Shown here: positions 1,020-37,237 of the stretch, piece by piece
Numbering within the stretch: the stretch's first letter is position 1
Layout of the letters: every line of letters begins with the position of its first letter
Source: Candidatus Iainarchaeum sp.
Lineage (GTDB): Archaea; Iainarchaeota; Iainarchaeia; Iainarchaeales; GCA-2688035
DNA: 38,438 nucleotides
Assembly: GCA_016932355.1 (NCBI GenBank)
Contig: JAFGDB010000030.1
Location: forward strand, 1-38,438
Direction of reading: 5' to 3'
Position numbers and translations under genes: made by a program
The notes under the pieces: model-generated
The model's input: only the letters and a program-made list of their open reading frames with translations
The model's database searches: none
Told to the model about the DNA's origin: nothing

Positions 1020-1046
1020 TTCAATGTCCCCTTGCTCCTGCTTCCC

Positions 1047-1376: not shown

Positions 1377-1488
1377 TCAAAATGCCCCTTTTTTGTTCGG
1401 ATTTTTGTGAATTGCAGTTATTGGCTGCAGGCCATTTTTATTTGAATTCCGCAGAGTTTCAGAAACGCGCTTTTCCATTAAAATTTCC

Positions 1489-1749: not shown

Positions 1750-1855
1750 TTTTTTTCACCCTCTTTCCATGTTTTTTTGCAGTGCCTTTATTTTTCCTGC
1801 ATCTCCAAAAGACTTATGGGTTTAGGTATTATTAAAACCTTCTCCCAATGATTTT

Positions 1856-2805: not shown

Positions 2806-5800
2806 TTAGCTGCCGTATCCAATGCAGCTTTGGCCTGCGGTCAGGCCCTGTTCAAGCTGTTCAATGCTTGTGTATGGCCCTGCTGTTTCATAGAGCTTTT
2901 GCGGGTTCCACCAGAATGCTGTCCTTGTGCCAGAATTTGTAACGCACACATGGCCTGTTTCCACCAGGTCAAACACGTCCTGCAGTGATTCAGCCTTGTT
3001 TACTGAATCCCTGCTGTTGTGCAGCATTCCTGTTATTCCTGAAAGCTCAACTGTTTTTGCTATGTTGCTGTTTGGCGTGATAAACATCATGCCTGCCGGC
3101 TCCAGTGATTTCATGCTGTATATGCCTGCTGTTGGCGTGAAGAAAACAGTTTTCAGGTATGCTGTTCCCTTATAGTCTGCCTTTGGCCAGTCAACTGCGT
3201 ATGCAAACTCCCAGTTCTGCAGCCTGTCAGTGCCTGTTGCCTCCCTGTCTGGCTTGAAGTCAAATGCCTCAAATGCGGGAATTCCTGTAAAGTCAAGGCA
3301 CTGCCCTGCTCCTGTCCAGAAACCGAGGGTTGTTCCAGCCTCCACAGGCGCCAAAGTTTCCTGCAGCTGGTAGAATGCGGAGAATGGCTCATCTGTCTGG
3401 CTTGCGGGCATTTTCAGTACAAGAGGCGTTGCATAATTTGGGCTGAAAACCAGCTTTTTTCCGCTGCTGCCTGTTTCTGTGAAGTCCATTAAAAAGCCCC
3501 TGCTTGAAGCGCTTGTGTTTATCTTCTTCAAATCTGTTACAATGTCTGTTTCCAGGCTGGCTGCTGTAGTGCTTCCGCTTATCCTCCCTGTATTAATGCT
3601 TTCTCCCGGGTAAAAGCTTATCAGTATGTCCTCTTTCCTGTTCTCAAAGTTCAGGCCATAGCCAATCCTGCCGTTGAAGCTTTCCTTTCCAATATTTCCA
3701 TTGAATGGCAGGCTGTAAAATATTGAGTCAGGGTATGGGTTTTCAGCAAGGTATAGGTCCACAACTGTTTCAGAGTCAGGCAGGTCTGCATAGAAGAAAC
3801 GCCAGTCCTCGTTGTGGAAGTTTATTGCAAGCGTTGCATCATAGAGCCCTGCTGAGGAAAGGGTGTTCTGCCCGGAATACCTTGTCCTGAACCTCAAGGA
3901 ATCTGTGTCCTCAAACAGGTTTGCAAGCCTTTCGCTTCCGCTAATGAACCATTCAGGCGGGTCATAGAATGCACTGGTTGTGTAGAATTCCGCAAAGTCG
4001 CTCTGGAAGTCATTGGTGTAGCCGTCCTTCATGAGGTATGCCTTGAAGTGCAGAATTTCCTGCAGTGAGTCAAGGTCTGGAATTTCCTCTGTCCATGCAA
4101 TGCTTTCAAGGTTTGCTTCAACGTAGTATAGGAGTGCAGGCTTGTTGTCGTAAAGGACTGTTGACCTTGGAAGCCAGCAGCTTGCAATGTCTATTGGGGC
4201 AAAGCCCTGCAGGCCAAGCTCGTCAAGCGTTTCATTGAATTCTGCGCCGAGCTCTTCAAGGTTCTCTATTGCGGGGTTTTGCGGGCAGGGCAATGGCATA
4301 TTTTCCCTTAGGAATTCGTCCAGGGCATGCAGCCTTTTGTTGACCATTATGCTGAACTGGGTTGCATCGCAGTAAACTGCCTCATCATTCATGTAATCGC
4401 ATTCATTTATCCCAATGCCTCCGTTTTCTGCCCAGCTCCAGTTGAGCTTTACTTTTGGCAGGGCATCGTGGCCTGTCCTGCCCACAAGCGTTCCCATAAG
4501 GCATGACTCTTCATCTGGCACTGGCGGTATTTCAAGCACAATTTCCTTTGTGTTGAATTTCAGGTGTATTTTCTGCGAGTATGTTTCTGCCCTAAGGTCT
4601 GGCACCTTAAAAGGGCCAAATCCTGAGTTTCCCCTGCTTATCGTTGTGGGGTTTGAATGGTAGTGCCTTGTGCTTGGAATTCTGACTGTTGCGTAAACAG
4701 GCTTTCCTGGCTCAATTGCAGTGTTTGTGAATTTAATGCCTGCCTCCTGCTTGTCATATGTTCCGAAGACCTGTGCATCCTCTGTTTCCCAGGCTGCTGA
4801 AATCCCCTGCTTGTCAACTGTCAGGGGCTGGCTGTCCTCCTTGAGGTTAATTGCATAATCCATTAGCGTGGCGGTAACCCTCTGGTCGCATGGGTCTTCC
4901 CCGAATATGCCGCCGAGCAGGCCGCCTGCAATTGCTCCCAATGCTGCATACGTTCCAAGAATTCCGAAGAACTTGCCTTTGCTAAAGCCTGCTGCCTGGC
5001 CTGTTGCAGCCATTGTGCTGCCCAAACTGCCCATTGATGTTTTTGCTGTTCCCAGGGATGTTCTTGCATCTGCAAGGCCGTTAACTGCAGTGCCTGCTGC
5101 TCCCTGGGCGTCTGTAATTTTTACTCCTGATGCCTCTGCTGCCTGGATTGCGGTTGCAACGCTTGTCTGTGCCTTTGTTATTGCGGCAGATGCTGAATCC
5201 ACCTGCGGGGCGCAGCTTTCACCCTCCGCTGAACAGCACCCGTGTGCAGCACCCAGCTCCAACTCTGATGATTCCAGGCTGCTTTGCACTGTTGCCAGGC
5301 CTGCTGCCATTCCCTGGTTTTCTGCAAGGCTTTCACCCCAGCCTGTGTAGCTTTCGCCCAGGTCAGATGCTGATGTGTCAACCTCGCCAATTGCATTGTC
5401 AATGTCCTTGGTTGAATTGTAAGGGCCTGTGCTTACTGCAGTGGTTTCATTTGGCGAGGCTGTGTTCCTGCCTGTTATTGCATGCCCAAGGCCTGAGGCA
5501 ATCCTGCCAACGCCCCTTCCAATGCTTGCTATTGCCCTTCCTATTTTTGTCCAGAAAGTGCCGTTTGCCGTTGCCTCTATGTTTCCCATTTCGGTGTTTG
5601 CTGCTGCAACTGCTGCCTGTACGCCTGCCCCACACCCCCCTATTGCATTGGAGGCAGTAAGTGCTGCTTTTGTGTCAACTGAGGCTGCTTTTATTGCAAC
5701 ATTCCTTGTCTGGTCTGCTGCGAGCTGTGCTGCATCACCTGCAGTGCTTGCGCCTTGGACAAGGCCGTTTGCCCTTTGCACGCTGTCTACTGCGCCAGTC

Positions 5801-10389: not shown

Positions 10390-13300
10390 CTAGCTTGCCT
10401 TTATGCATTCCTTCTCTGCAAGGCTTCTCTGCTGGCTGAGCTCCTCAAGCACTGCTTTTGGGTTCCAGAAAAACTGGTTGCTTATCCTGCTGTCCGCGCC
10501 AATAATGCAGACCTTGTTTTCCCTAACCAGTTCAAACACGTCCTCTATTGAGTCAATTGTGCTTGTCCCAAAGCTGTTGTACTCCATTCCTGGAACGCCG
10601 TTGAGTGCAACCTGGCTTCCGCTGCTGTCTGCAGTAATCAGGCTCATGTCATCGCTGTAGGTTGTTTTCTTCATTGTGCTGCTTTTTCCCTGCGGCGTGA
10701 ACACAACTGTCTGGAGGAACACGCTTCCCTGCCTTATCGGGTTGCACCATTCTATTCCATAATCTGTTATGTCTGTTGCCACAGCGCATGACAGGTTGCC
10801 TGTTATGCCGCCGTGCATGTCCCAGGTGTCCTGCCAGGCCTCTGTAACAGGGCTGCCTGTGAAGTCAACGCAGTTTGGCCCAATGCCTGACCATGCCAGC
10901 ATCCTGTTGAATGCTGTCTGGGGCGTATTGTCAACCTCTATTGAATAAAACGCATATGCATGCTCTGTTTTCTCATAGTCAACCTGCATCATTACAGGCG
11001 TTGCATAGCTTGGGCTTAGCATAATGTTTGTTGCTGCTCCTTGCTTTTGCACGTCAAGCAGTATCCCTTTTCTCTCGAGGTTAAGCCTCCTGAAGCTGTC
11101 GCTGCTCCCTGCATCAATCCAGCCATCGAGCACGGGCGTGCTGTTTGCTATATTTGTTGTTGCTATGGGCTGGAAAATGCTGTTGTTTATTTTTATTGTT
11201 TGTTCGCTTGTCTGCCTGAAGTTAATTCCGTATCCCTGCCTTCCGTTTTCGCTGTCTATGCCGACAAGGCCGTCAAACGGCAGGTAGTAAAATGGGCTGT
11301 CGGGCTCTGGTGCGGCCAGCTCAACCAGCTCAACGCTGACTGTTGCATCAGGCTCAGTGCCTGAAAACAGCTGCCAGTCCTGGTTGTCAAACTCAATATT
11401 CAATGTTACTGAGTACTTTCCTGCATCCAGTGGGGCGTGCGGTGCCATGCTGTAGTCAAACTTAAAGCTTTCCCTGTCAGAAAACAGCTTGTGCAGCCCT
11501 GTACTCTCCTCCAGGTAATAGTCCGGGCAGTCAAAGAAGCTTCTCTGCTTGCAGAACATGTCAAAGTCTTCCCTGAAGTCATTGGTGTAAGCGTCTTTTA
11601 TGAGGTATGCGTTGAACTTGATTGTGTCAAGTATTTGTTCCCTTTCTGAATTGCTCCATGCTGCGTTTCCTGCTGCCTCTGTTGCCTCAATGAAGAGCGG
11701 CAGCCTCTTTGTGTTGAACGGCTCGCATTCTACAACGCCGCCTGTTCCAACGTAAAGCTGGACTTCAATTGAGTCATTGCCTGTGTCAGAGTTCTCGCAG
11801 TTGCTGCAAAGCTCTGAGGTAATGCTTGCCTGTACAGTGTAGAGGCCGTCTCCCAACTGTGTGAATTCGCAGTTTGCAACCTTTCTGCTAAGCACGCTCA
11901 TTTCCTTTGTGCAGCTTTTTGCAAGGCTTCCTGTGCCTGCATTCCTCAGGTTTACACTGATTGAAACTGGTATTGGCTCGCTGTTGTTGCTTTCAATTGT
12001 CATCACAATGTTTGCATCGCTCTGCCCTGCCTTGTTTGCCTGGATCTTTGTTATTGCAATGTCATAAGCTGTCCCTTTGATGGGCTGCTCCTTGGCTGCT
12101 GCTTCGCTTGCCGGGCTTGGGCAGTCAAAGGGCTTGTATTTGTCAATGAATTCCTGCAGCCTGTGCAGCTTCTTCAGGGCAACAATGCTGAACTGCGTGG
12201 CATCGCAGTAAATGTAATCAGGGTTGCCCTCAACGCAGCTGTCCTCGCTTATTGAACCCCAGTCCCAGCTGAATGAAACTTTTGGAACTGCGCTCGGCCC
12301 TGTTGTTCCCACAATATTCCCAAGCGTGCAGTTTGGTATTGGCTTGCTTATCCTTTCAATGAGCAGCGGGTCAAACGCGTTGAACTGCAGCCTGAAGCTT
12401 TCCTTATGGTCCTTTCTTTCCTTTACCTCAAGGTCCGGCGTTTCCTTCTCATCAAGGTCATACTCTGTCTTGTATTCCCTTCTCTCATTGTCAACCTTGA
12501 GTATCCTGAACAGCGGTGTTGCTGGGTCTGGCTGCACAACGCTTTCCTTGTTCAAAAACCAGAGCTTTCTGGTTTCAATGCTCAGCTGCCTGTCCTCCTG
12601 CTTTGGTTCTGTGCTTACCTCTGGCTTTGCAGGCTCAAACACCACAATGTCCTCTGACTTGGTTTCAACAAGGGCATTGTCCTCAATTGATGCCCCTGGC
12701 ATGTACAGTTCGGCATCCCTGTAAACAACATCTCTCTCTATTTTTGTAAAGCTGAAGCTGCCTTCGTCCTGCTGGTTGTATGCAATAATGGTTCCTGCAA
12801 GGAATCCCTGCAGGCCCCAGCCAAGGAAGCTCGGCTTTCCCAGGATTGACTGGCCAAGGCCGCTTATCAGGCCGTTTCCAAGCATTCCTGTCAGGCCACT
12901 GCCGCCCCCCCCTAAAAGCGCAAGCCCTGCTGCGCTTCCCAGAACAATTTCTTCCTGTTCTGTCCTTGCTGTTGGGTAGCTGCTTCCTGATACAATTGTT
13001 GCCTTTTCTGTTGCGCCAAACCCCAGAATGCCGCCTGTTTTCTCAACCCTGTAGGCATTGCCTTGGGCATCGTAAACCAAATTTTCAGAATCAATTGGCT
13101 TGAAGTATGTTCTTCCGCCGATCTCTACAGGCACGCCTTTCCTGCCTCCTGCATCTGCAACTGTCCTGCCCTGCTGGAACTGCTCAAATGTAACAGCGTT
13201 TCCTGCAGCGGCAATATTGCCTGCTGCCTGCGGTGCTGGCTGCTGCATTCCGCTTCCAAGCTGGCCCATTGCCCCTGTTGCCAGCCCATAGAGCAGGCCT

Positions 13301-17886: not shown

Positions 17887-20800
17887 TCAGCCTGAGAGCA
17901 GCTTGTCCTTGTTCCAGGCAAGCTCAATGATTTCATCGCCTGGCTTTACGCAGACCTGCTCTTCCTTTATCTTTTCAATGAATGAGGCCAGGGATGCCTT
18001 CTTTGATTCTATGGGTTCGTGCAGCTTGAGGTCAAGCTCGCCCTTCCTGTATCCTGCGCCAACATTTATTTCCTCTGCCGTATTCTCTGATTCAACTTTT
18101 GCGCTGCCCTGGCTGCAGTAAACCACGAGCTTGTATTCCCTTGCAAACGGCACAAATGCAATTCCCCTGAAGGTTTTCTGTGCTGTGAGCTGCTGCTGGA
18201 AGCCGTGCAGCGTAAGGTTGCCAATTTCCTTGCAGAGTGTCCTGCCTTGCTCTGGAGTGTGCTTTTGGTCTGCAAAGTCAGCAATTGTTTGGGGCTGTGC
18301 AGCTGGGGGAGTTCTGGTTGGTCCAGCAGGCGGCCTTGGTTCTGCAAGGCTGGCGCTTGATTTGGCCCTGTATGTGAACAGGCTTGGCTCATTACTTATA
18401 ATGCCCTGCTCTGTAGCGCTAATCTCGTAAAGCATGCCCTCTATCCCTGCTCCTGATACAGGGTTAAGCTCAATTTCCAAGGGGATTGCAACGCTTGGGT
18501 TGTATTCAAAGCTGCCCTTCCCTGCCTTGAGTATTGTTCCCTTGTTGGTTTTGTCAAATGTTTCCCCAAACTTGAAGTTCAGGCTTACAAGGCCCTTTGT
18601 TGTGCTTATCGGGCCTGCGTTGTCCTCCTCTGACCCATAGCTCAGGTATGTCTTTCCTGCTTCAGGCGCGTTTGAGAAGCTTACTCCATAGCCTTCCCTT
18701 GTAGCCTTGTCTGTCCCCTCCCCAAACCTGCCTACTTCCCCGTCAATCGGCAGCTCAAAGAACAGGTTCTTTGCATAGCTTTCATTTATTGCCGCAAGTT
18801 CCTTCTCCAAATCAAGCCCAGCATTCCACTGGGTTTCCGTGCCTGCGCTGAAAATGTATTTAATTGCAACATTGTAAAGCCCTGCCTCTGGCAGTGCGTA
18901 AGTGTACTGTTCTTTGCCCTTCTTTCCAAATGCCCATGCCCGTTCGTCCTCAAAGCTTGTGTAGTTAAGCAGGTCATCGCCGCTGCTTTCTAGCGCAAGC
19001 AGGCCGTACTTCAGCCTGAAGTCCCTTCTCAGGTCATAGCTGTAGCCGTCCTTCACAAGGTATGACTGGAATTCAATTGCCCTTTTCCTGAAATCATCAA
19101 AGCTTGCATAATTGTCTTCGCCTTGGGTTTCAGGCAGCTTCAAATTGCTGACAAGGGCTGCCTTTTCCATTGCCTCTTCCTTGCTTTCTTCACTCATGTC
19201 CTTTTCATGCAGCAGCCCTGCCTTGAAAACAGCCTTGCCCCAGACCTCTTTAAGCAAATCGCTTGAAACAGTTGCAACAGATATTTCAGTTCCATTGCCC
19301 TGTGTAACTATCTCTGGAAGAGTAACATCAATGTCCTGCACTGTGTTCCTTTCGGCTTCAGGCTTTGCCTTGAGCTTGTCATATACTGCCTTGTGGAACA
19401 GCCTGTATTCATTGAATGACATCACATAATTTCCCGCAGAATCCTTCTCTGCCCCAAAGCTTTCAAGCACTGTTTTCTGTGCTGTGTCCACCGCAGGGTC
19501 AGCTATTTCAACAACTATTGCTTCCCTGCTTTCGCTCTTCTCAAGCTCCTTGAGAAGCTCCTCTGTTTTTTCAATTATATCCCACCAGGCGCCTGCCTGG
19601 AAGCCCTTTACTGCCTCGGCCCTTGCCTTTACCGTTTCCGCAAATTCAATTGATTCATCCTCAAGTATTTTTCCGTCCTTCCCCTGGAAGAACACAAGGT
19701 CTTTTTTCAAATAGCCTTTTTGCTCTTTGCCTGGTATTGGCTGGTTGAACTTGTCCTCGATTTTTTGCTGCCTGTGAACCCACCTGAACAATTCTGCAGT
19801 GTTCATGTAATTGCTAATGCTGGTGTCATTGCTGCCTGTTGCTGCCTTGACATTTGCCTTGTTGGCTGTTTCCCAGTTGTTTTTGTTGCTTTCAACAAAC
19901 TGCTTTATGTCGTTTGCCTTTTTGTTCAGTTCAATGCTGAACTGCACTGCATCGCAGAATTTTTCACTGCCCTTGCTTTCCTTTGAATCGCACTCCTGCC
20001 TTTCAATGCTGTCCCATGCCCATTCAAATAGCAATTTGTCAAAGCCGTATTTTGTATAAGCTCCGCCTGTTTCCCCGCCCATGGCCTCACAGGTCTTTAC
20101 CTCTGTCGGCTTTATTGCAGGCTCTGCCTCAGTGCATTTTGTAACGTCAATCTGGCTTAATTCAACGCCATTGTTCAAAATATTTACCCTTACAGGAATG
20201 TTGAATGTTCTTGCCCTTGCCCACTGTGTCGGCCTGCTGAGGGTTGCCTCAACTGTTGTGCTTATTTTTGCGCACTGCACGTTCTTCATGCTGCTCCTGT
20301 CAACTGTTACCTCAATGTTCCAGTTGCCCTTCTGCAGGAGGTTCTGGCACTGGTTCGGAACTGCCCTGAAGTAGAGGGTTACACCGCTTTTTGCATCTGT
20401 GTAGCTGCCCTGCACTGTTTCAATGCTGTCTGTTCCGCTGCAGGGCGGCACCTTCAAAAGGTCCTGCTCCGGGGTAAACTTGTAGGTGTTTCCTGAAAAG
20501 CTCCCCTGGGGAACAAAGCCCTGGTTGTTTCCAAACCTTGAGGCAATGTCAAGGCCGTTTGCATTAATGCAAGCCATTGGGTCCTCGACTGCGCTGCCTT
20601 TGTCATTGCACTTCTGCATCAGTTCTGTTGGAATGCCGACCTGGCCTGCATTCCTCATGCACTGGTCAAGCGTTTCCCCATAACCCCACCAGTCGTTGAG
20701 TATTATCCTGAAATACTTTATGTCCTGGCCTCCAAATGGGTTGTAGTAGTAAACGTTTGCCGTTGCCCTTACCTCTGCCCTGTACTTTGCTGAGGTTGCA

Positions 20801-23800
20801 GTTGCCCTCAGCCCGTAAAGTGTTTCAAACGGCATCTGTGCCATGTATTCACAGAGCTGTTTCCTGTACTGTATGTTTGGCTTTACCTCAAAGTCAACAA
20901 CTTGGAGGGTTCTGCCTGTTTCCTCATCAAGCCCTGTCTTGTATTCGTCCACAAAGTAAACGCTTTCAATAAGCGGGCATGTTCCCTCATAGCCGTAAGC
21001 CTGCTGGTATGCCCAGTTGCTGCTTCCATAGGGGTATGCCCCCATTGGGTTGTAGTACCCCTGGGTTGCATTTCCCTGCTGGCTTGTGTAATAGCCCGGG
21101 CCGAGAATTCCGTTTGTTGCCCTGTACTCATTTGCTGAGTAGGGCTGCCCGGTGAGCGGGTTTGGCATGTTGCCCATTGGCGCCTGGTTTATGTAACCTG
21201 AGGTTTGCGTAAACGGGTTTGGGTATGCCTGAAGCATAATCTTTTCCTGCTGTTCCTGGCCTTCGCTGAGCTGGAATGTGTTTATCTGCTGGCCTGGAAC
21301 CTGGCATGCAAAGTCTATTATCTTGCCTGCCTTTGGCAGCCTCACGCCAACGTCATAGCAGTAGTTGAATACTGATGCATCCTGCGGCCTGCCGACGAAA
21401 TCACTGAGGTTTATGTTGTCCGTGCTTAAGTGTATGCATTCCTCGTCTATCTCGCCTGGCCTGCTTACAATTACATCAACTGTTCCAACCTTGTAAGGGT
21501 CTTCTTGCCCCTTCTTGAGCTTGGCTGTTACGTCAATTGTGTATTTACCCATCCTGTAGCCTGCCTCAATTTTCACTGTCTTGTCTGTGTCTGGGTCAAG
21601 CGAGAAGCTGTCAGAGTCTGTCCTTATCCTTGATGGAACGTCCAAATCAATTTCAACAGCCTCTTCGCATGTGTTCTTTACAATGAAGTTGCTTTCGCCA
21701 AAGCCGTACATCCAGCTCTGGTCTTCCCCCTGGTCATAATACCTTGTGTAGTATGAGGTGTCAAACTGCGAGTATGGGTATGTGCTTCCGCCGTACATGC
21801 TTCCATACCCTGTTCCATATCCTCCATAAGCGCTTCCATATCCTGACCCATAGCTGCCGTATGTTCCGTAGCTGCTTGCATATCCGCCAAGGCCGTTCTG
21901 CGTGTATGGGCTGTATCCGTATCCTGCGCTGCTTCCGTAAAGCCCGTAACCTAAATTCATTGGAACTGTTTCAACCATTACCGGGCTTTCCGCATCTATC
22001 TTTACGCATTCTGAAAGCTTGCTTATGTGTATTTCTGTCGGAAGCCCTAATTCAATCTTTTCATCGCCTCTCTCTGTAATGTTTGTTGCCCTGAATTCAA
22101 TCTTTGGCTTTCCTGATGCTGAGTCAATTGAGCTGTTTGGGGTGAATGTTAATTTTATGCTGCCTTCAAACTCTTCCGGCAGCACGTCTGCAAATGTTGA
22201 GTATGCTTCTGCAAGCGTGATTTCGTTTGCTTCAGGCAGCTCCTCGCTGCTCAGCACGAATTTTCCCAGCCCGTTTTCGTTTCCTGATGCAATCCTTGCC
22301 TCAAAGTCCTTAAGCGCAATGGTTTTCCCGTCCACAGTGCAGTCATTTACCAGTGTAAATTCCTGGCTTTCGCTTTTGTCCTGGCCTGTTATAATTTCCC
22401 ATTTGACTGGCTCTATGCCCAGGCATTCTCCCTCATCCACCTGCTCGCCCAGCCCAATCCTGATTGTGATTGGTATTTCCTGCAGGAAGCTTGCTGATGC
22501 CTTTTCGCTCCTGACTGTTATTGTCAGGCTGCCCTCCATCTTTGCCGGCCTTTCAATAAGTGCGCCTTCCTCTGTAAGCTTCAGCGTCAGGAAGATGTTA
22601 AGGTCTGCGTTTTGCTTTATCTCTGCCCCAAGGTAGTCATCATACCATTCAAATTCAACAAGGTCGTTGCCAAAGCCGTTGAAGCTGAACCTTGTAATTG
22701 TAAGGTCGCTTATTGTCTGGTTGCTTAAGAGTATTTCTTTTTCTATTTCGCTGAGGTAATTGTCAAGCTTTTCGTTTATTTTTGGGGGGCTTACAATAAG
22801 TATTTGCTGGTCTACCTTTGTTTCAAGCTCTGCTTTCCTGTAGCCTGTTTTTTCCGCCCTTACAAGCAGTGTTGCGCCTGTTGCAGGCGCTTCCAGGTTG
22901 TATTCAACCCTGCCCTGGCCGTCGCTTTCTGTTGATTTAAGCAGCACTTCATCCAAGTAAATGCTTACAATTGCGTTGCTCACTGTTTTGCCTGTGCTGT
23001 CACTAACCTTTACCAGAATTTCGTTGTCTATGAGCGGCATTACCTCTTTTGGAATCATTTCAAGCCTCAGCTCCTCTGCCGCTGCAACCCTTACATTAAT
23101 TGCTTCATTCAGCACAGGCTGGTTGTTTGACTTTATGGCAATTGTCAGCGGGTTGTTTCCCTCTTTCTCTGTTTCAAATTCAATTGACCCATATACAACG
23201 CTGTCGCTCTCCATGTTTCCAATGGGCTTTGAAATGCTGTATCCTTCAGCTTTCCCGCTGCTTTCAAGGCCTGTTGCATCCTTTATGCTGTATTCCCCAA
23301 ACCTCAGGCCGTCTGTTTCGCTTCCAAACTCTATTTCGCAGTTTGTAAAGGCCTGCTCGTTTATGCTGCTTATTGTAAAGTATAGCTTGTAGCTGCTTCC
23401 AATTGTTGCGTCGTATTCCTGCACAACATTTATCCTTGTCCTCTTTGCAAGGTCCTCTATGCTGAAGCTCTTGCAGAATGCCTCATTGCACAGGTTTGTT
23501 GGGCCTGCTGATGCAGCAAGGTAATTTGCATTGGCATACAATGCCTGCTTTTCAGAGGTGCTTTCTGCCCCTGCAAGCTCGTTGTCTTTTGGGTACCTTG
23601 TGTAAATGCCTTTTTTGCCCCATGCCCTATACCACATTGGCAAAAGCTGGCCTATTCCTGCGCTTTCCTTTACCTGCACTTCAACCTCTGCAGCGTATGC
23701 GCCTGCGCTGGCATTCTCCCACATGATGTTTGCCCACTTGCTGTCGCCTGTTGTTAAATGAATAGCATCTGTTGGATACCCTTTTGGCGGCGTAAAGGAT

Positions 23801-25851
23801 GTCCCTTTGAGAATGTTTGCTGTTGAGGCATAAATCCCCTTGATGTAGATTGCGTCCTCCTCCATTATGTTGGTCTTGCCCTCAAGGGCTTCGCCTGCCC
23901 TGAAGTGGATTCCAGCCTCATCAAATTCGTCGCCCTTTGCCACAAGCAGGAGCAGCTTTGCAGTGTACTTTTCCCCCTGCCCTAAATCCATTGTTTCAGG
24001 CACCTGTTCCTCTCCCTGGTAAAAGCCCAAAACTTTTACCTGGAGCTCCCCTGGGTCCTTTGCAAGGTTAACTATTATTGGAACAGTGCTGTTCGGGTCT
24101 GGCATTGCTGCAATGCTGTAGTATGGCAGGAAGTCCGCTGCATCAATTTTAAAGTAAACCTTTTTGTCAGCCCTTATGTTTACAGTGTATTTTCCCTCAA
24201 TGTCTGTGATTCCTTCAGCCTCTTTCTCTTCCAGGACTGAGTTCATTACCTCAACTATTGCTCCCTGCACTGCCTGCCCTTCATCGCTTAAGACAGTGAG
24301 CTCAATATTGCCCCACCCAATCGGCAGGACAATTGTTATCCTGTTTTCAATCCTTGGCCTTATTGTGATTGGGTCGCTTGTTTTGCCCTCAAAGCCTTTC
24401 TTTGCTGCGTAAACATAGTATGTTTCCAAAGGCAAATTTGTGAATTCTGCCATTCCGTCAGAGCCTGTTGCCCTGTCGTTTGCATAGATTGTGCCGTCAG
24501 GCTTTTTCAGGATAAGCCTTACGTTGTCAATTGCGTTTCCCCTTGAGTCAACAACCTCTACAACAAGTGTTTGCGTGTTGTCGGAGGTTGCAGGGCTTAA
24601 ATAAATTTCCCTCAGCGTGCCCGAAGCGCTTATGCCTGAAACTGTTGCAATCAGGTAGCCTGCTGCATCAACCTGAATGCCGTATTCCACGCTTTCAGTT
24701 ACAGTGAATTCAGCAATTCCCGCGCTGTCAGTGTATGCTGTGTCAATTGTTGCATAATCCCTCTTCAGGTAAACGGTTGCGTTTTCAACAGGGTCTGTGC
24801 TTTCAACATCCTTTGCAAGAATCCTGATTGTTCCAGCGCTTGCTTCCTGCAAACTAACATTAAATGTTATTATCTGGTCCTTCCTCAATTCTTTGAGGTC
24901 CGGGGCTGCCAGCTGGCTTCCGTCAAAGCCTCCATACCTGCCCTGGCTGTCGTGCGCAACTATGTAGTATGTGCCTGTTGCTATGTTCTCAAAGGATGCA
25001 GTTCCTGCAGAGCTGCTGTAGCTTGTTCCAGCCAATATCTCGTCATCCCTGTAAAGCATTACTGTTACGCCGCTAACTGCCTCGCCTGCCCCATTCTCAA
25101 CAGTCACATTTACTGTGCCTGTGTCTGTTGCAATTGCCTGCAGGAAAAGCTGCGGTGCAGCGCTTGCAATGCTTATAACGCCGTTCACTGCAGAATAGCC
25201 TGCCACAGGGTTTGCAACAAGGCTTCCGCAGTTGCTTGGAACCTGCAATTCGATTACGCCGTTTACGCTTTCCTCTGTCCTGCTGAATGAGCTTGCGTCT
25301 GGGCTGCTGCAGCTGAACCTTACTGTAACAGGGTCTGTGATGAGCTCGTTTGAGCCTGCCTTCATTAGCTGTATGCTCTTTAAAACAGTGCCTGCCACAG
25401 GGTTTAGTGAAACTGTTTTTTCAATTGATTCTGAAACATCAATTGTTTCCTCAAAGCTGCCATAACCGCTTTTTTCAACAAGTATTGTTATTTCGCCTGG
25501 TGCAACAGAGACAAATGCCCTTCCCTCTGCATTGGTTGAAACAATCTGCTCAAGGCCTGCCGAATCAGTTACGGTTATGTCTGCTGCCTGCAGCGCAAGC
25601 CCTGCTTCAGAGTCCTTTACAATAAAGCTTACTGTTGTTCCCTGGAAAACCCCGCCAAGAAGCAGAACCAGGCCTGCAATGATTATTATAATCAGCGCAA
25701 GCACTACAGGGAATGAGGGGATGTTCCTTTTTTCAATTGCGTCCACCAATGGGTACAGTGAGAGGCCCTTTCCCTCAAGCCAGTCCAGTGCCTTGTAGTA
25801 CTTGTCCTCTATTGCAAAATAGCCGTTGCGCAGGCTGTCCTTCAAACCCAT
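17887..25851 (-). CDS. Giant signal-anchored surface protein, paralog 3 (2654 aa)
   Basis: Uninterrupted 7,965-nt ORF with an ATG start. The N-terminus is MGLKDSLRNGYFAIEDKYYKALDWLEGKG...NIPSF plus a TM helix. CarboxypepD_reg-like repeats are present (e.g. QTLVVEVVDSRGNAIDNVRLILKKPDGTIYANDRATGSDGMAEFTNLPLETYYVYAAKKGF). Central motifs are SKWANIMWEN and WYRAWG. It has Gly/Tyr/Ser-rich and Tyr/Gly/Asn/Gln-rich low-complexity inserts. The C-terminal module carries FCDAVQFSI and SYLVKDGYSYDLRRDF. Confidence 0.95.
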   Translation of the reverse strand: MGLKDSLRNGYFAIEDKYYKALDWLEGKGLSLYPLVDAIEKRNIPSFPVVLALIIIIIAGLVLLLGGVFQGTTVSFIVKDSEAGLALQAADITVTDSAGLEQIVSTNAEGRAFVSVAPGEITILVEKSGYGSFEETIDVSESIEKTVSLNPVAGTVLKSIQLMKAGSNELITDPVTVRFSCSSPDASSFSRTEESVNGVIELQVPSNCGSLVANPVAGYSAVNGVISIASAAPQLFLQAIATDTGTVNVTVENGAGEAVSGVTVMLYRDDEILAGTSYSSSAGTASFENIATGTYYIVAHDSQGRYGGFDGSQLAAPDLKELRKDQIITFNVSLQEASAGTIRILAKDVESTDPVENATVYLKRDYATIDTAYTDSAGIAEFTVTESVEYGIQVDAAGYLIATVSGISASGTLREIYLSPATSDNTQTLVVEVVDSRGNAIDNVRLILKKPDGTIYANDRATGSDGMAEFTNLPLETYYVYAAKKGFEGKTSDPITIRPRIENRITIVLPIGWGNIELTVLSDEGQAVQGAIVEVMNSVLEEKEAEGITDIEGKYTVNIRADKKVYFKIDAADFLPYYSIAAMPDPNSTVPIIVNLAKDPGELQVKVLGFYQGEEQVPETMDLGQGEKYTAKLLLLVAKGDEFDEAGIHFRAGEALEGKTNIMEEDAIYIKGIYASTANILKGTSFTPPKGYPTDAIHLTTGDSKWANIMWENASAGAYAAEVEVQVKESAGIGQLLPMWYRAWGKKGIYTRYPKDNELAGAESTSEKQALYANANYLAASAGPTNLCNEAFCKSFSIEDLAKRTRINVVQEYDATIGSSYKLYFTISSINEQAFTNCEIEFGSETDGLRFGEYSIKDATGLESSGKAEGYSISKPIGNMESDSVVYGSIEFETEKEGNNPLTIAIKSNNQPVLNEAINVRVAAAEELRLEMIPKEVMPLIDNEILVKVSDSTGKTVSNAIVSIYLDEVLLKSTESDGQGRVEYNLEAPATGATLLVRAEKTGYRKAELETKVDQQILIVSPPKINEKLDNYLSEIEKEILLSNQTISDLTITRFSFNGFGNDLVEFEWYDDYLGAEIKQNADLNIFLTLKLTEEGALIERPAKMEGSLTITVRSEKASASFLQEIPITIRIGLGEQVDEGECLGIEPVKWEIITGQDKSESQEFTLVNDCTVDGKTIALKDFEARIASGNENGLGKFVLSSEELPEANEITLAEAYSTFADVLPEEFEGSIKLTFTPNSSIDSASGKPKIEFRATNITERGDEKIELGLPTEIHISKLSECVKIDAESPVMVETVPMNLGYGLYGSSAGYGYSPYTQNGLGGYASSYGTYGSYGSGYGSAYGGYGTGYGSMYGGSTYPYSQFDTSYYTRYYDQGEDQSWMYGFGESNFIVKNTCEEAVEIDLDVPSRIRTDSDSFSLDPDTDKTVKIEAGYRMGKYTIDVTAKLKKGQEDPYKVGTVDVIVSRPGEIDEECIHLSTDNINLSDFVGRPQDASVFNYCYDVGVRLPKAGKIIDFACQVPGQQINTFQLSEGQEQQEKIMLQAYPNPFTQTSGYINQAPMGNMPNPLTGQPYSANEYRATNGILGPGYYTSQQGNATQGYYNPMGAYPYGSSNWAYQQAYGYEGTCPLIESVYFVDEYKTGLDEETGRTLQVVDFEVKPNIQYRKQLCEYMAQMPFETLYGLRATATSAKYRAEVRATANVYYYNPFGGQDIKYFRIILNDWWGYGETLDQCMRNAGQVGIPTELMQKCNDKGSAVEDPMACINANGLDIASRFGNNQGFVPQGSFSGNTYKFTPEQDLLKVPPCSGTDSIETVQGSYTDAKSGVTLYFRAVPNQCQNLLQKGNWNIEVTVDRSSMKNVQCAKISTTVEATLSRPTQWARARTFNIPVRVNILNNGVELSQIDVTKCTEAEPAIKPTEVKTCEAMGGETGGAYTKYGFDKLLFEWAWDSIERQECDSKESKGSEKFCDAVQFSIELNKKANDIKQFVESNKNNWETANKANVKAATGSNDTSISNYMNTAELFRWVHRQQKIEDKFNQPIPGKEQKGYLKKDLVFFQGKDGKILEDESIEFAETVKARAEAVKGFQAGAWWDIIEKTEELLKELEKSESREAIVVEIADPAVDTAQKTVLESFGAEKDSAGNYVMSFNEYRLFHKAVYDKLKAKPEAERNTVQDIDVTLPEIVTQGNGTEISVATVSSDLLKEVWGKAVFKAGLLHEKDMSEESKEEAMEKAALVSNLKLPETQGEDNYASFDDFRKRAIEFQSYLVKDGYSYDLRRDFRLKYGLLALESSGDDLLNYTSFEDERAWAFGKKGKEQYTYALPEAGLYNVAIKYIFSAGTETQWNAGLDLEKELAAINESYAKNLFFELPIDGEVGRFGEGTDKATREGYGVSFSNAPEAGKTYLSYGSEEDNAGPISTTKGLVSLNFKFGETFDKTNKGTILKAGKGSFEYNPSVAIPLEIELNPVSGAGIEGMLYEISATEQGIISNEPSLFTYRAKSSASLAEPRPPAGPTRTPPAAQPQTIADFADQKHTPEQGRTLCKEIGNLTLHGFQQQLTAQKTFRGIAFVPFAREYKLVVYCSQGSAKVESENTAEEINVGAGYRKGELDLKLHEPIESKKASLASFIEKIKEEQVCVKPGDEIIELAWNKDKLLSG

Positions 25852-28447: not shown

Positions 28448-31400
28448 TTACTCCTCTTCCCTGAATTGCATCCAGGCTGACCTTATCTCCCTAATCTTGC
28501 TAAGGTATGTGCTCGGGCTTTTTGTGCTTGTGAAGCTTGTTAAGTAGTTTTCCCCCTTTTCAAGCGAGTTCCTCAGCCTTTGCGCAGCGCACCCTATTAT
28601 TGCATTTACCTCTTTCTCGCTGTTTTTCTGCTTCCACCATTCCTTCTCTATTCCGCAGCCCTTTATGTTTTCAGGCTCATAGAGCAGCACAGCCATCAGC
28701 ATTTCCTCGTCAATGGCTATGCCTTCCTTTTCAGCCCTGTAGTAATCTGCAAAGTACCTTATAACCATCTGGTTTTCGTTGTAGAGGATTGCCTGCTCTT
28801 GGCTTACCTTGTCATTTGGGTATGGCTTTAGCTTTCCAAGGAAACCGGCATCCTCTTTCCCATAATTCTTGCAGTCAGTGTTCCAGTTGCTTTCCTTGCT
28901 GCTTTCAAAGGCTTTTGCCATCTCCCCATACCGCCCTTCCCCAAGAGCCATTATGTTAACGCTTGTCCTGCCCAAGCTGTCTTTGGAAATGGTTACCTTG
29001 TGCGGCTGGTTCTTCACAAGCTCAAGCTCTTTTACAACAGGCTTCTGCGCAATTACATTGCCCTGCTCGTCAACAACATCTGTCATCATGCTTGTTGTAA
29101 ACCTTGCCTGCTCCTGCACGGCATCAGGCCCAATTCCCTCCCAGTACGCCAAATACAGGGCCATGCCTGCAGCGTTTGCAACCAGCCCTGAGAGAACGCC
29201 CTTTGCAAGGCCCTTGCCAAAGTTTGCAAGCTTCTTTGAGAACTTCGGGCTTTCAACATATTCCTTCATGATTTTTGATGCATCGCTTCCAAACTTGCCC
29301 TGCAGCTTTGTTACAACCTCTGCGTTAACCCTTTTCTGCAGCGCCTTGTAAACAGCCTTGTTGTTTGCTGCGTCTGCAGCAAAGTCTGCCATTGAATTCC
29401 TGACAAGGTCTTCAACGCTTGACTGCATCTGCCCAAGGAACCTTGCCTTTTCAGCTTCAGCCATCTTGTCAACCAAGTCATTTATGCTGAATTTCCTGAG
29501 TGCGTTCTTTGGAATTCCTGTTGTGCCTGACAGCTTGGTAATTGCATCATTGTAAATGTCCATCATTGCCTTTTGGGCTGCTGGCTTTGTATAGCCTGTT
29601 TTGGTAACGCTTTTCTTGATTGCGTCCTCAAAATTGCTTCTGCCCCCAAATTCGTCCCATATGCTGTCCATCATGTCTCGGTCAAGCGAATCAAAGGATG
29701 AAATAATTTTCCTTGAAACGCTTTCCTGTACCTCCTTTCCACTGAGCGTTCCAAGCGAGTCCATCTGCATGCTTGCAAATGCCTCGTCCCCTATCTTTCT
29801 TGCGTCAAATATTGTGTTTGTCCTGTTCCTTATTGCATTATCCAGCAGCGAGCCTTTTGCAATTGTCCCTGTGGCAATTCCCTCACCCAGCTGCTTGTTA
29901 AACTCATCCTGCATGTCTGCAAATGCCTTGTCAATAACTGCGTTTGCCACATCCTTCAGCGGCTTGCCCTTCAGGCTTGGCTGCAGTGTTGTAAGGTGCC
30001 AGCTGCTTGGCCTTACCCCTGGCGGGCCTTTTACAAAAAGGTTTTCTGCTGCGGCATCCTTTGCCTTTTCAACGAGCTTTTTCTGCAAGTCATCTGCAAC
30101 TGTTTTAGGCAAGCCTGCCATCTTCTTTGTTATGAACTGTTTTGCATACTCATCCCAAAGGCCTGAGTTTACAAGCGTTCTTGCGCTTGACAATGTAAGT
30201 GTCTTGCTTGTTGCGCTAAGCCCCTCTATCACTGCCTTTGTTCCTGAGAATGTGGCTGCCCCCTTGAGCAGTGTTCCAAACTGTGAGTTTGCCTCATCCT
30301 CTGAGATGTATTCCCCTGGCGTTTCGCCTGCATCCAAATCAACAATGTCTTGCCCTCCAAACACTTTGCTTACTCCATTCAGCACTATTCCAATGGCTTT
30401 TCCAACCGGCCCTAAGGCTGTTTTGACTGCATTGATTGCAAACTCCTTTGCTGCCTTTGTTGTTTCTGTAAGGTCAAGTATTGCTGGCATTGCAGGAAGC
30501 ACGCAGTCAAATGCAACGCTTCCCCATGGCGAGAAGAATGCAATCGGGGCGCATGCCCCCATGTACAACCCCAGTGATGCAATCCTGTCTGGCCTTGCCT
30601 CCTTTTCATAGCTGCTCAGGCCGCTTACTGGTTCTCCAACTGCTGCTGGCCCCATTTCCTCAATTTCCCTCTGCAAAGCGTAAAGCCTTTCCAGCTTTGG
30701 GAATGAGAGTGTGTCAGGGCTTCCCTGCCAGCCTGGCATTGCATAGTATATTTCCTCCTTGCCTTTCTCCATTGCCTTTTCCCTTTCAGTAATCTTCTTT
30801 ACAAGCTCAAGCGGGTGGATTCCGCAGACCTCTATTGCAATTGCATGCGCCTTCTCCGTTTTTCTCCCATCATAAATGCTTCCATAGGCGGTAAGCTCAA
30901 TGCTCTTCACTGATGCAGGGGCAAGCGCAAACTCGTTGCTTCCCTTTACGCACATTACAAACTCTTCCCCATAAAGCTTGTTTTGGGTTGAGCCTTCTGT
31001 GCTTCCAGCTTCCTCTGTGCTTGCAGGCTGACTAGGTTCTGCACTTCCTGGCTGTGCAGGCTCTGGCTTAAGCTCTTTGAGTGAAACCTTTTTGCTTTTC
31101 TCCCCTTTCTGGCCTGCTGTCCTGTTCTCCTCTTTGAGCAGTGGCTCTGCGTCAATGCCCTTCTTCTCATAGTCTGCCTTTTTGTATATTGCAACTGATT
31201 CAATGCCTGCCCTTTCCTGCTTTGCAAGGAAGCTGGTTGAAACCTGCACTGATTCCTTTGCATCGCTCTCCACGCTGAATTCAGCGCAGTTGACCTGGTT
31301 GTTTATCCTTATGCTTTCATCGCCCTTTACTTGGAATGTGGGGTAGAGCTTCCTGAAGTTCTGCCCGCTTTTCATTACAATGTACTGCCCGTCCTCGCTT

Positions 31401-34400
31401 ATGCAGTCCTCTTCCCCAAATTTGTGGATTATGAATGCACCCATTGCGTCTGCTATTCCCTCTGCCATCTCCTTGTTGCTTGGCTCAAACTGGGTTGGCG
31501 CATATGCCTTTACTGTCTTTTCTGAGTCTGGGTTGCCCTCCTTTTCAAGCTCTATTAGGAGAAGGCCGCTTTTTGTGTCTCCCTTTAAAATTGCAAGCGC
31601 ATTGCTGTTTTCGCTTTTTGTTGATGTCCTGCCGTCTGTTTTTCCAAACAGTTCCTGTGCAAGCAGCTTTGGCAGCTCTCCAAGCTCTTGGCTGCTTCCC
31701 TGCACATATCCAGGCCACGCGCTTCCTGAAAGCCCATATCCCTCGTCAACAGGCAGGAAGTTAATAACATTTTGCACATAGTTCCAGCACTGGCCTGTGT
31801 CTGCCCTGTCCTGCTCAATGGTTATTGTCAGGGCAAAGTTCCTGCCTTCCTCTGAGATTATTTCACCATTTGAAACCTGCATTGCCCCGTTTATTTCAAC
31901 ATAGTATTTTCCGCATCCCTTGAATGGCTTTTCAAGGTAGATATTTCCAAATGTGAAGCCTGCACCGCTTATGTCCTCCAGGTCAATTGCGTTTTGCTTT
32001 ACGTCATAGCCCTTGAGCTCTGTCTTGCTGAATTCCCTCAGCTCCTTAATAAGTGTTTCATAGTCCATGAAGTCAAGCTGCAGGAAAACAGGCAGTATTT
32101 CCCTCTTTACATTCATTTCGTCAAAGCTGCAGTGCCTCCTCTCCCTTGCTGCGCACCCTCCAAACTCTGAGGCCTGGTATTTTGCCTTTGCTGCCTTGTC
32201 CTTTGCAAGCGTTACCATGTCATCTGCTTTCCTGACAATGTATTGCGCAAGCTGCTTTGCATCGCAGTATCCATCAGAGCAGTTGCTGCTCAGCAGCGGG
32301 AAGCTCACCCTTTTTGTGTCCTCGCTGTCGCAGACCTTTATGCTTACCTCTTCTGTTGCCTTTCCCTCTGCTGCTGCTACAAGCCTGCCGAGCTTTACTG
32401 TTACTGAAAGCTCATCTGATTCAATTATCTTGTTCTGGTTTACGAGAAGGGCCAGTGCCTTTATTTTTGCCGCCCTGTCCATTTCCTGGCTTCCAACCAT
32501 CCTTAGGCTGAATGTGCTTTCCTGGCTTGGCTGCAGCACGATGTTTGCCGGGAACAGCATGAATGCATTGCTTCCAACTGCGCCTGGCTTTGTTGTGCCT
32601 GTAACCCTCAAGGGTTCGCCGCACTCGTTCTTGAGCTTTACCTGCCTTTCAATTATTGCAGTTGCCTTCTGGCTTGAGAAAACCATGCTTTCAATTGCCT
32701 CTGCCTTCAGGCACTGCGTTCCTGTGTAATTTACTCCAACCTCTGTCCTGCCCAAATCAGGGTAATACCTTCCGTTTATCACGCCTCCAAAGTATACATA
32801 GCCCTGTGCTGGCTCTGTCAGGGCTTCTGACTTGCTTGTTTCAGCGTAAACATGCCTTGTTGGGCTCAGCGCCTGTCCTGGCATCAGGTTTATTGAGCTT
32901 ATTGCTGTGGGCTTTATCTGCGCGCTTATTCCATATCTCCTGTAAGCTGTGTCCTCTATTGCTGCCCTGAATGCTGTTATTGGCGCAAACCCAGTGTTCA
33001 TCAGCTGGATTGGGACCTGGCCATATGCCCTTTCCTCTGCCGCTGCCCTTGCAAGCCACATTGTCAGGGTTGGCGGATAGCTTAAATTGCTGCTGGGGTT
33101 CCAGAGCTCTACTGAAAGCTTTATTGTTTTGTTGAGCTGGTCTGATTCAAGCTCTATGCTGAAGTACCTTCTTTCCTGCATTGCGTAAAGCCTGTCAATT
33201 GTGTTGCTTGCAGTGATTTTCAGCTTTTCAGTTGATTCCTTTTCAATCCTCAATGGTTCAACTGCAACGCTTAAATTTGGGTCTTGCTCCTGGGGCTTTA
33301 CCTTTGCGTTGAGCAAAAGCGAAGCCTCACAGTTGTTTTCAACCTCAATTTCCTGGGTTGCGCTGCTTCCTGCTGTCCCAATAAGCCTGATGACAACCTC
33401 CTCTGTGTCAAATTCCAGGCAGTCTGAGTCAAGCTGCTTGTTGTAGTTTGCCACAAGCCTTGCCGTTGTTTTTGTGGGAAAGCTTCCTGCAGCCATGCCC
33501 TTTATTACAAGGTCTGCCTCGCCGTGAAGGCTTTCCTGGCTTTCATCCGTTGTGCTGACTGAAACAGTTATGTTTGCGCTTCCGCTTCCCTTTCCTGCAA
33601 TTGTGCTCGGCATTTCAACTTTTACAGAGAATTCCTCTGGAAATCCTGAATCCTTCTCAAGCTCGTATGCAAGCCCTGTTATTTCCTGTTCCCCTGTATT
33701 GGTTATTGCTGCTGCCGCGCTTTTGTACTTCTCACCTTTCCCTATGTTAATCTCTATCGGGCTTTCAACTGTGAGAATGCCGTCCTTTGCAATTGTTATT
33801 TCAAGTTCCCCTGTTTTGTAGCCTGGGGCGCTTGCCTCTGCTGTGTAAAGCCCTGGCTCCAGGCTGTTTTTGAAAAGGTATTCGCCGTTCAGGCCCCTTC
33901 TGCTTGCGCCATTGCCTACAACAGTTAACGCGATTTTCCCGCTGCTGTCCTTAAGGCGGATTGTTGCGTTCTCTATATCCTGGCCGTCCTCACTGTCCAT
34001 AACGCTTATTGTAAAGTCCTCTCCAATGCCTATTTCCTCTGGCTTAACTCTCACAAGCATTGTCTTGTTTCGCTCTATCTGGAAGCTTGCTTCCTCATTG
34101 AGGACAATTGCGCCTGAAACAGCCTGCACCTTGATTGATGCTGTTCCCTCTTCAAACGGCTTAAAGTATGCCCTTACCTTCCTGGCCTCTGTTCCAACAG
34201 AAAGGCTGCTTATTGTAATGCCTGTCTGCTGGCCTGATTCAATGAATTCCAGTGGGTTTTCGCTTTCCTGCTGTGCTAATGTAGTTTCTCCAAGTTCGAG
34301 GAAGCCCTGCCCTGAAAGGTCTGTCTGCGCTGGAAGCTGCTCATCTAATATTGGTTCCCCGAGAAAGTCGTCAACCTCATAGCCTGTGAAGTAAATTAGG

Positions 34401-36910: not shown

Positions 36911-37237
36911 TTTCAAAGACCACTTTTCAAGGCTTTCTTTTTCGGCTTTTTTTTTATTCCTGATTTATTCTTTCTTTCCCAAGGCTTTCCTTTGGTCAAA
37001 GAAAGGCTTTTCACTTTATTACTCTGCCTAATTAATTTCTATGGCATCTTCTATATTAACCTTTATATCAAGGCATTTTTTTCCCTTCTGGAAAAACCAC
37101 AATAAAAAAAGGGCAAACTAATATATTAAAGTAATTATTGCAGCGCCCCAGCTTCAAACAGGTATTTTTGGGTTTCTATTTCATTGATAGAAACGATTAT
37201 TAAGAACTTTAATTATGTTTATAGCGGTGAATCTTCT

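Follow-up and report, generated by a model that had tools for sequence, protein, structure and literature searches.

The contig JAFGDB010000030.1 of Candidatus Iainarchaeum sp., whose entire length of 38,438 bp is the window analyzed here, carries four giant open reading frames (ORFs) on its minus strand and raises the question of what the C-terminal module of about 680 residues may be that three of them (G1, G2, and G3) have in common. The lineage in question, Iainarchaeota (Diapherotrites), is a DPANN phylum of widespread, uncultured, ultra-small archaea. Comparison of the window with related genomes shows, at the level of sequence, that the module is real and ancient and that it always forms the C-terminal end of giant, signal-anchored proteins; structure prediction shows it as a self-folding domain, modeled with confidence. 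The four giants are the following.

28448..36916, minus strand: G4, ORF of 2,822 amino acids (aa)
17887..25851, minus strand: G3, ORF of 2,654 aa
10390..17595, minus strand: G2, ORF of 2,401 aa
2806..10293, minus strand: G1, ORF of 2,495 aa

The C-terminal module, its family, and its paralogs

A sequence-only reading of the window had proposed that the module runs colinearly through G1, G2, and G3, and this is confirmed both by BLASTP and by a hidden Markov model (HMM) that was built, as a guard against circularity, from 44 modules of other genomes and zero window sequences. In BLASTP, residues 1861-2010 and 2066-2481 of G1 aligned with residues 1690-1831 and 1979-2396 of G2 at 31-32% identity (E values of 2e-20 and 8e-59), and the match between G1 and the G3 module was weaker (3e-9 and 3e-5). 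The independent HMM covered aa 1816-2493 of G1 (E = 2.7e-260) and aa 1657-2394 of G2 (E = 2e-179) and recognized G3 in pieces (aa 1907-2002, 2240-2480, and, weakly, 2620-2651; E = 6e-35). The G3 module is diverged and interrupted: its first subdomain is not recognizable, and its last 170 aa or so have strongly diverged.

2809..4860, minus strand: C-terminal module of G1, aa 1812-2495, from the independent HMM and the AlphaFold2 model; stop codon at 2806-2808
4354..4374, minus strand: YCDATQF signature, aa 1974-1980 of G1, from the family alignment
10393..12627, minus strand: C-terminal module of G2 (G2-type paralog), aa 1657-2401, from the independent HMM
11662..12102, minus strand: insertion of about 145 aa in subdomain D2 of G2, between the CP and CW cysteines, from the gap in BLASTP colinearity
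17890..20133, minus strand: diverged module of G3 (G3-type paralog), aa 1907-2654, from the independent HMM, in pieces
19135..19845, minus strand: insertion of about 237 aa in G3, aa 2003-2239, helical and charged, from the gap between HMM domains

The motif positions given by the sequence-only reading proved right, the equivalent of YCDATQF starting at aa 1797 of G2 (about nucleotide 12207) and at aa 1966 of G3 (about nucleotide 19956), and all five of its motif blocks correspond to conserved columns in the 98-sequence family alignment. It had also assigned extra insertions to G3, which holds for that protein but has to be widened, since G2 carries one of about 110-145 aa as well. Both occupy the same site of the module, between two conserved cysteines, and in the family alignment an insertion of about 100-130 aa is found at this CP/CW site in 61 of 97 relatives. 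Neither the G2 nor the G3 insertion had a match in Pfam; the Cys-rich one of G2 is probably an extra beta domain.

In G4, the independent HMM found no module, and BLASTP detected similarity to the other giants in its N-terminal 800-960 aa alone. A comparison of the single G4 sequence with the module was not significant (E = 0.1 over 21 columns), nor was an hhalign comparison of a G4-family profile with the module profile (E = 0.063, probability below 1%, 54 columns around GYCDAKQ). G4 (aa ~1548-1560, window positions 32232-32272) and six clusters of its orthologs contain an invariant G-Y-C-D-A-x-Q-L, with a conserved Cys before it. This motif recalls YCDATQF and, on its sequence, may be a vestige of subdomain D2.

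To see how far the module extends beyond the window, we searched sequence collections at several levels. A word-indexed search with the G1 module returned 96 clusters of a 90% cluster database, all of them giants of 2,100-3,100 aa or truncated fragments of giants, named, where a name was given, "Candidatus Diapherotrites," "Micrarchaeota," or "archaeon." A profile of 47 modules, run against 1.84 billion representatives of 50% identity clusters, matched 848 proteins at E values of ≤1e-3 and 554 at ≤1e-30. Among the 150 top-scoring of these 848, the module stands at the very C terminus of each full-length protein (2,200-3,250 aa); the shorter matches begin in the middle of the profile and are therefore contig-end fragments. 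The pattern YCDATQF[STN] alone picked out 208 stretches in species-representative genomes, 205 of which were confirmed as relatives, and the module reaches the stop codon in every retrieved locus. G1 and G2 show the full set of family features (YCDATQF, eight cysteines, a module at the extreme C terminus, a length above 2,000 aa, and an N-terminal signal anchor), G3 shows part of it, and G4 lacks the combination.

The retained loci carry, with few exceptions, titles that read Candidatus Iainarchaeum, Diapherotrites, or unclassified archaeon; Ca. Iainarchaeum andersonii SCGC AAA011-E11 and the complete genome GW2011_AR10 are among them. Three labels that stand out, one each of Micrarchaeota, "Thaumarchaeota," and "Chloroflexi," are probably binning or labeling errors. 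Two bins, labeled "Thaumarchaeota archaeon" and "Chloroflexi bacterium" (JAFCCH010000027.1 and JAFCCG010000009.1), contain giants that are 48-50% identical to the G1 module. As far as labeled records go, the retrieved sequences thus show the module to be specific to the Iainarchaeota (Diapherotrites) lineage. In the literature on giant proteins of DPANN, Diapherotrites, and Iainarchaeota, we found no description of this module family.

In a maximum-likelihood tree of 163 modules, 35 members form a G2-type clade and 127 a G1-type clade (support of 0.97 for each). All four pairs of giants from the same contig that we tested are split between these two clades, as are G1 and G2 of the window, and the duplication that separated G1 from G2 is therefore older than the divergence of these lineages. 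G3 forms a long branch in the same tree. A search with the G3 module retrieved eight clusters of G3-type orthologs (2,535-2,713 aa; 27-41% identity over the full region), some of which share contigs with G1-type orthologs, and G4-type orthologs are found on those contigs as well. On the tree and the gene order, the G1-type and G2-type modules are ancient paralogs that stand in tandem across the phylum.

Predicted fold and conserved cysteines

AlphaFold2 modeled the 684-aa G1 module from a 37-sequence alignment with a mean predicted local distance difference test (pLDDT) score of 88.2 and a predicted template modeling (pTM) score of 0.83, the five models lying within 1.6 units of each other. 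When the last 365 aa were modeled separately, the scores rose to 93.1 and 0.87; over both runs, the five models lie within 2-3.5 units. These values bear out the earlier expectation of a folded domain. Because the pTM score is high, the model suggests that the module packs into a single compact unit instead of a string of separate beads. Three parts can be told apart in it:

4471..4860, minus strand: G1 D1, aa 1812-1941, a beta-sandwich of long strands that ends near the invariant C1931, from DSSP of the AlphaFold2 model
3901..4470, minus strand: G1 D2, aa 1942-2131, a Cys-rich loop with two long helices and a small alpha/beta part, from the conservation profile and the model
2809..3900, minus strand: G1 D3-D4, aa 2132-2495, a beta-rich body with a small alpha/beta end, from the second AlphaFold2 model

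Counted in module residues, the beta-sandwich spans positions 1-130, with DSSP strands at 20-32, 37-46, 55-68, 88-102, and 119-128, and is the least confident region of the 684-aa model (pLDDT of 51-90). The second part (131-320) passes from the Cys-rich loop into two long helices (166-187 and 196-214) that start at CDATQF; in G1 it holds W1952, C1965, Y-C1975-D-A-T-Q-F, C2003-P, C2039-W, and AYLMKDGYTNDFQSDF. The third part (320-684), a large body rich in beta structure, closes with a short alpha/beta end and carries the motifs LPFNG.IG......GR.GYG, ATP, W.G.G.C.DF, PDR, VCV....FWWNP, and a terminal CIG.

The sequence-only reading could match the module to no known fold and had pointed to AlphaFold and Foldseek as the way to find one. 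Run together, these tools gave confident models and no significant match in the PDB, and the same negative result was obtained with Pfam, NCBIfam, and sequence and profile searches of the PDB. Specifically, Pfam and NCBIfam assigned no family to aa 1812-2495 of G1 and gave three chance-level matches across the 47 modules (E of about 3e-3, one member each). Against PDB sequences, phmmer and two profiles left the module unmatched, the hits being confined to the N-terminal immunoglobulin-like (Ig-like) stalk (NOMO2) or to chance scores. Foldseek found nothing at E values of ≤0.001, either for the 684-aa model in the PDB and BFVD or for the 365-aa model in the PDB. Its top match was CLIPPER (9ifr), a 123-residue Ig-like domain of a fibrillar adhesin, which was not significant (E of 0.05-0.07, template modeling [TM] score of 0.45-0.48, probability of 0.75-0.89). 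We did not take it as a homolog: it is a generic isopeptide-type Ig-like domain (PMC12617251). The further matches, to adhesin, capsid, and flavivirus E proteins, combined low probability with very poor superposition.

Three other candidate assignments were also set aside. A class II fusion protein or fusexin is not supported by the flavivirus E match, which had a probability of only 0.01-0.02, a TM score of 0.03-0.07, and a root mean square deviation of about 30 Å. A papain-like or transglutaminase-like hydrolase would agree with the Cys at the start of a helix, but the alignment has no His column at or above 90% (the best-conserved one, H1877, reaches about 80% and lies upstream, in D1), and no structural match was found. 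For a thioester domain (TED) such as that of alpha-2-macroglobulin, the C-D-A-T-Q spacing is i, i+4 and not i, i+3, and no TED, C3d, or alpha-2-macroglobulin was among the Foldseek matches. Taken together, the models and searches give the module a fair chance of being a new fold.

Next, we asked which residues the family keeps. Across 176 sequences, 52 columns are at least 90% conserved, and eight of these are cysteines (C1931, C1965, C1975, C2003, C2039, C2332, C2450, and C2490 in G1). In YCDATQF, no aligned family member departs from the C, D, or Q. Besides cysteines, the invariant positions comprise Trp, Tyr, Asp, Asn, Arg, Gln, Gly, and Pro, and no invariant His is among the conserved columns. 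The cysteines tend to disappear two at a time: C2332 and C2490 (module C521 and C679) are jointly lost in 12 sequences, C2003 and C2039 (C192 and C228, which bracket the insertion site) in G3 and one other, and C1931 and C2450 (C120 and C639) in one sequence, so that G3 lacks the equivalents of both C2003/C2039 and C2332/C2490. With three pairs set by joint loss, C1965 and C1975 are left as the fourth. The pattern suggests that the module probably contains four disulfides, C1931-C2450, C1965-C1975, C2003-C2039, and C2332-C2490, of which the first two pairings are weakly supported. The disulfide stabilization proposed from the sequence is in this respect probably borne out.

Predicted membrane placement, gene neighborhood, and possible function

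All four giants have a strong hydrophobic helix (TM1) at about aa 42-68. Among 159 relatives, its N-flank holds 1.67 K+R compared with 0.61 on the C-flank, as would be expected of an N-in signal anchor that leaves the Ig-like region outside. The placement of the module itself depends on a second hydrophobic region:

4900..4971, minus strand: Gly-rich hydrophobic segment H2 of G1, aa 1775-1798, directly upstream of the module, from a hydropathy scan

In G1, two such Gly-rich hydrophobic segments (aa 1458-1476 and H2) bracket a variable Ala/Thr/Ser-rich insert, and the module begins about 15 residues after the second. The whole hairpin and insert region of G1 covers window positions 4864-5922 (aa ~1446-1802). 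A transmembrane-like segment or hairpin occupies the site before the module in 62 of 98 relatives (Kyte-Doolittle means of up to 3.5), and the short forms have two adjacent, clear transmembrane helices, often with CPPC or CxxC at the turn. The C-flank of H2 is strongly acidic (D+E of 2.9 versus K+R of 0.7 in 66 relatives). Members have either no such segment or, where these could be resolved (short forms and G1), two, an arrangement that should leave the module outside the cell together with the ectodomain. With moderate confidence, the sequences thus argue for a module that is extracytoplasmic and disulfide braced and that, in G1-type and most other members, lies close to the membrane, since a transmembrane-like segment directly before it would tether it there and not at a far tip. 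Two conserved cysteines, one in a "C.W" just ahead of the first segment and the other in a "D.C" just behind the second (EDPC in G1, aa 1802), co-occur in 58 of 64 scorable relatives and might form a disulfide that clamps the hairpin at its mouth. In G3, aa ~1290-1700 consist of long Gly/Tyr/Ser-rich low-complexity stretches (GYGSAYGGYGTGYGSMYGG...) where G1 has the hairpin and insert; the three paralog types are thus unlike in the way the module is tethered, if it is tethered at all, and in G3 it may still sit distally.

The degree of constraint on the module can be read from full-length alignments. Identity to near orthologs is 44-71%, about equal to that of the central ectodomain, and in distant orthologs the module retains 36-45% versus 26-32% in the Ig-like stalk; the variable part of the giants is the hairpin and insert region. 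As judged from these identities, the module does not behave like a recognition tip that diversifies. The earlier proposal that the module is the distal business end of the protein is thus doubtful on two grounds, the position of H2 and of the transmembrane-like segments of relatives just before the module, and the conserved rather than hypervariable character of the module itself.

The genes around the giants add a further line of evidence:

573-2583, minus strand: five small hydrophobic or polytopic ORFs, downstream of G1
26054-27775, minus strand: Cys-rich ORF of 573 aa, between G4 and G3
37184-37996, plus strand: PAC2-family proteasome-assembly-chaperone homolog (E = 3e-46), flanking the giant array

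Downstream of the last giant, four to five small polytopic ORFs (about 130, 105, 85, 100, and 120 aa) recur throughout the phylum, and after them come a coiled-coil ORF on the opposite strand, an ORF of about 500 aa without known domain (and without match in Pfam), and a family-B DNA polymerase. Tandem giants with four to five small ORFs of several transmembrane segments recur in at least 15 loci, AR10 among them, and all relatives with enough flanking sequence keep the same layout of the giant block. This small-ORF synteny was seen, among others, at loci L003, L006, L010, L015, L022, L027/L079, L028, L033, and L038. The block is about 30 kb long, in a genome that, going by the complete AR10 sequence, measures about 1.2 Mb. 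Its synteny is kept across the phylum, and on gene order it is therefore a conserved core-genome feature rather than an accessory island. The small polytopic ORFs matched no known family, the sole match being a weak one to DUF7598 on a single ORF. The PAC2 homolog beside the giant array is consistent, by its sequence family, with an archaeal chromosomal context. The 573-aa Cys-rich protein has a single N-terminal hydrophobic helix (QRAFNLFTALVSFLLIILAVLL, pilin-like) and no match in Pfam, and in one relative (L001) a domain-less ORF of 966 aa stands at a similar place.

How might these features fit together? The reading that we favor, and to which we give about an even chance, is that the module serves in assembly or binding outside the cytoplasm, without enzymatic activity, as part of an envelope or contact apparatus found throughout the phylum. 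A giant would have its N terminus in the cytoplasm, cross the membrane with its signal-anchor helix, and display some 1,400 aa of ectodomains, Ig-like ones and others, on the cell exterior. In about 60% of relatives, as in G1, a hydrophobic hairpin (its arms separated in G1 by the insert of about 300 aa) would then lead back into the membrane, and the module would re-emerge outside, at the membrane surface. There it could bind giants together or dock them onto the five small polytopic membrane proteins that are encoded downstream in nearly every relative, and the three ancient paralog types, always side by side, might jointly form an envelope or cell-contact structure of the whole phylum.

Several observations weigh against this reading. 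H2 of G1 is rich in Gly and Ala, with a Kyte-Doolittle mean of 1.74, and could be a non-membrane segment; its equivalent in G2 is weaker, and in G3 the module is preceded by none at all. The C1931-C2450 pairing comes from a single sequence. N-glycosylation sequons are not enriched in the G1 module (3 versus 5.6 expected) and are uninformative on its location, and the invariant Asp, Trp, Tyr, Asn, and Arg would also suit the active site of a glycan-processing enzyme. The metatranscriptome of the same study yielded no contigs on the locus, the organism being present at about 6x depth in the DNA run of the sediment metagenome, and we know of no cultured organism from the Iainarchaeota.

It is unlikely, yet worth real consideration, that the module is instead the far tip of the Ig-like stalk and recognizes a host cell or surface ligand, like the terminal domains of bacterial fibrillar adhesins. 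The architecture of the giants, a stalk of CarboxypepD_reg, Big_1, and SpaA-type Ig-like domains with a unique globular domain at its end, speaks for such an adhesin head, as do the mostly episymbiotic life of DPANN archaea, the identity of the best nonsignificant Foldseek matches (adhesin domains of CLIPPER 9ifr, FnBPA, PsaA, Als3, and Flo5), and the lack of any hydrophobic segment before the module in G3 and about 38% of relatives. However, these Foldseek matches, like all others, lie above an E value of 0.01, the module follows directly on the segment or hairpin in G1 and the 62 relatives counted above, it is less variable than the stalk in the most distant orthologs, and the same three paralog types are kept in each genome without diversification. 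A catalytic role has still less in its favor, and we consider it improbable that the module is a new glycan- or peptide-processing domain that remodels the cell's own envelope or breaches that of a host, with the invariant acidic and aromatic residues as its active site. Its invariant or nearly invariant residues (D1976, Q1979, D2090, D2099, R2209, Y2212, N2259, W2326, D2349, W2462, and N2463) do form a mixture of Asp, Trp, Tyr, Asn, and Arg that is typical of carbohydrate-active sites, and in the model C1975 lies two residues ahead of a long helix, the geometry of a papain-like nucleophile. Against this stand the lack of an invariant His for a Cys-His dyad, the probable engagement of C1975 with C1965, the presence of three paralogous copies per genome, and the failure of Pfam and NCBIfam to return a catalytic family and of sequence, profile, and Foldseek searches to return a PDB enzyme.

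Two further possibilities would change the side or the chemistry of the module. That it is cytoplasmic, with the topology reversed or H2 as a single crossing and with conserved cysteines that are free or bind metal, seems very improbable to us: the hydrophobic segments of G1 are indeed weak and Gly-rich, the sequon count gives no sign of enrichment, and eight cysteines could build metal sites, but they lie far apart, are lost in pairs, and form no CxxC or CxxH clusters of a metal site, the charges flanking H2 fit an in-to-out orientation, and where no segment precedes the module, as in G3 and about 38% of the family, it can lie only on the side of the Ig-like ectodomain. The slimmest chance goes to a reactive "harpoon," in which the Cys and Gln of YCDATQF would form a thioester-like bond for covalent attachment to a target, as in the CGEQ of alpha-2-macroglobulin and complement or in Gram-positive thioester domains. 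Neither residue varies in any of the 163 sequences covering these columns, the two are four positions apart where a helix begins, and weak macroglobulin-domain matches (bMG3 and MG4) occur in the N-terminal half. The latter reflect generic Ig-like similarity below the Pfam cutoffs, though, and the i to i+4 spacing (not i to i+3), the silence of Foldseek on thioester and macroglobulin domains, and C1965 as the likely disulfide partner of C1975, by elimination, all tell against the bond.

Returning to the assembly or binding domain, it is tempting to speculate, although we think this bolder version rather unlikely, that a module of new fold is the membrane-proximal hub of a machine made of three giants, their hairpins, and five small membrane proteins, acting as an equivalent of a surface layer (S-layer) or as an apparatus for cell-cell contact or exchange of a type so far undescribed in archaea. 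If the module is indeed the hub of an envelope or contact apparatus, this would bear on the cell architecture and the interactions of DPANN archaea. It is in any case the most diagnostic part of the family and a ready lineage marker, YCDATQF alone sufficing to retrieve the 205 loci, as well as a well-behaved structure target with a strong chance of a new fold and the most tractable entry to the role of the giants.

Comparison with known surface proteins

The giants resemble the giant fibrillar or repeat adhesins of bacteria (SiiE, the LapA/MpIBP-type RTX adhesins, and the Gram-positive Ig-repeat proteins) in their very large size and in a long Ig-like run that leads to a unique globular end domain, and the weak structural echoes of the module all go to adhesin domains. 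They differ from these adhesins in being archaeal, in combining an N-terminal signal anchor with, in most members, a second membrane hairpin before the module, and in that about 850 aa of their ectodomain are non-repetitive and conserved. The searches, moreover, gave the module no significant match to a lectin, vWA, TED, or other adhesin head.

Archaeal S-layer and envelope proteins (SlaA/SlaB of Sulfolobales and the Haloferax S-layer glycoprotein) are likewise extracytoplasmic, rich in Ig-like domains, membrane anchored, lineage specific, and hard to recognize by sequence, and the core-genome position of the giants and their several partner proteins would suit an envelope component. In contrast to any described S-layer protein, however, the giants are two to three times larger, and they have a different topology (N-terminal anchor and internal hairpin), no sequence or profile similarity, and conserved cysteines, S-layer proteins being usually Cys-poor. 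The S-layer protein of Micrarchaeota, of 101 kDa, is unrelated to them (bioRxiv 10.1101/2021.04.28.441871).

The best PDB sequence match of the whole-protein profile was NOMO of the BOS complex (PDB accession no. 9c7v; E = 6e-9), a chain of CarboxypepD_reg-type Ig-like domains. This match is confined to the N-terminal stalk (profile positions 265-465), and NOMO has no counterpart of the C-terminal module. Among the giant surface proteins of DPANN archaea and the Candidate Phyla Radiation (CPR), the SPEARE proteins of Nanohaloarchaeum antarcticus carry protease, adhesion, and restriction-endonuclease domains. They share with the giants a very large size, lineage specificity, an origin in ultra-small archaea, and a presumed part in cell-cell contact, and they are set apart by these domains, the module having no recognizable one. 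Giant surface proteins with an Ig-like stalk and a unique terminal domain are already known, and what is distinct here is the double membrane anchoring, the deep organization into three paralogs, and a large terminal domain without detectable relative.

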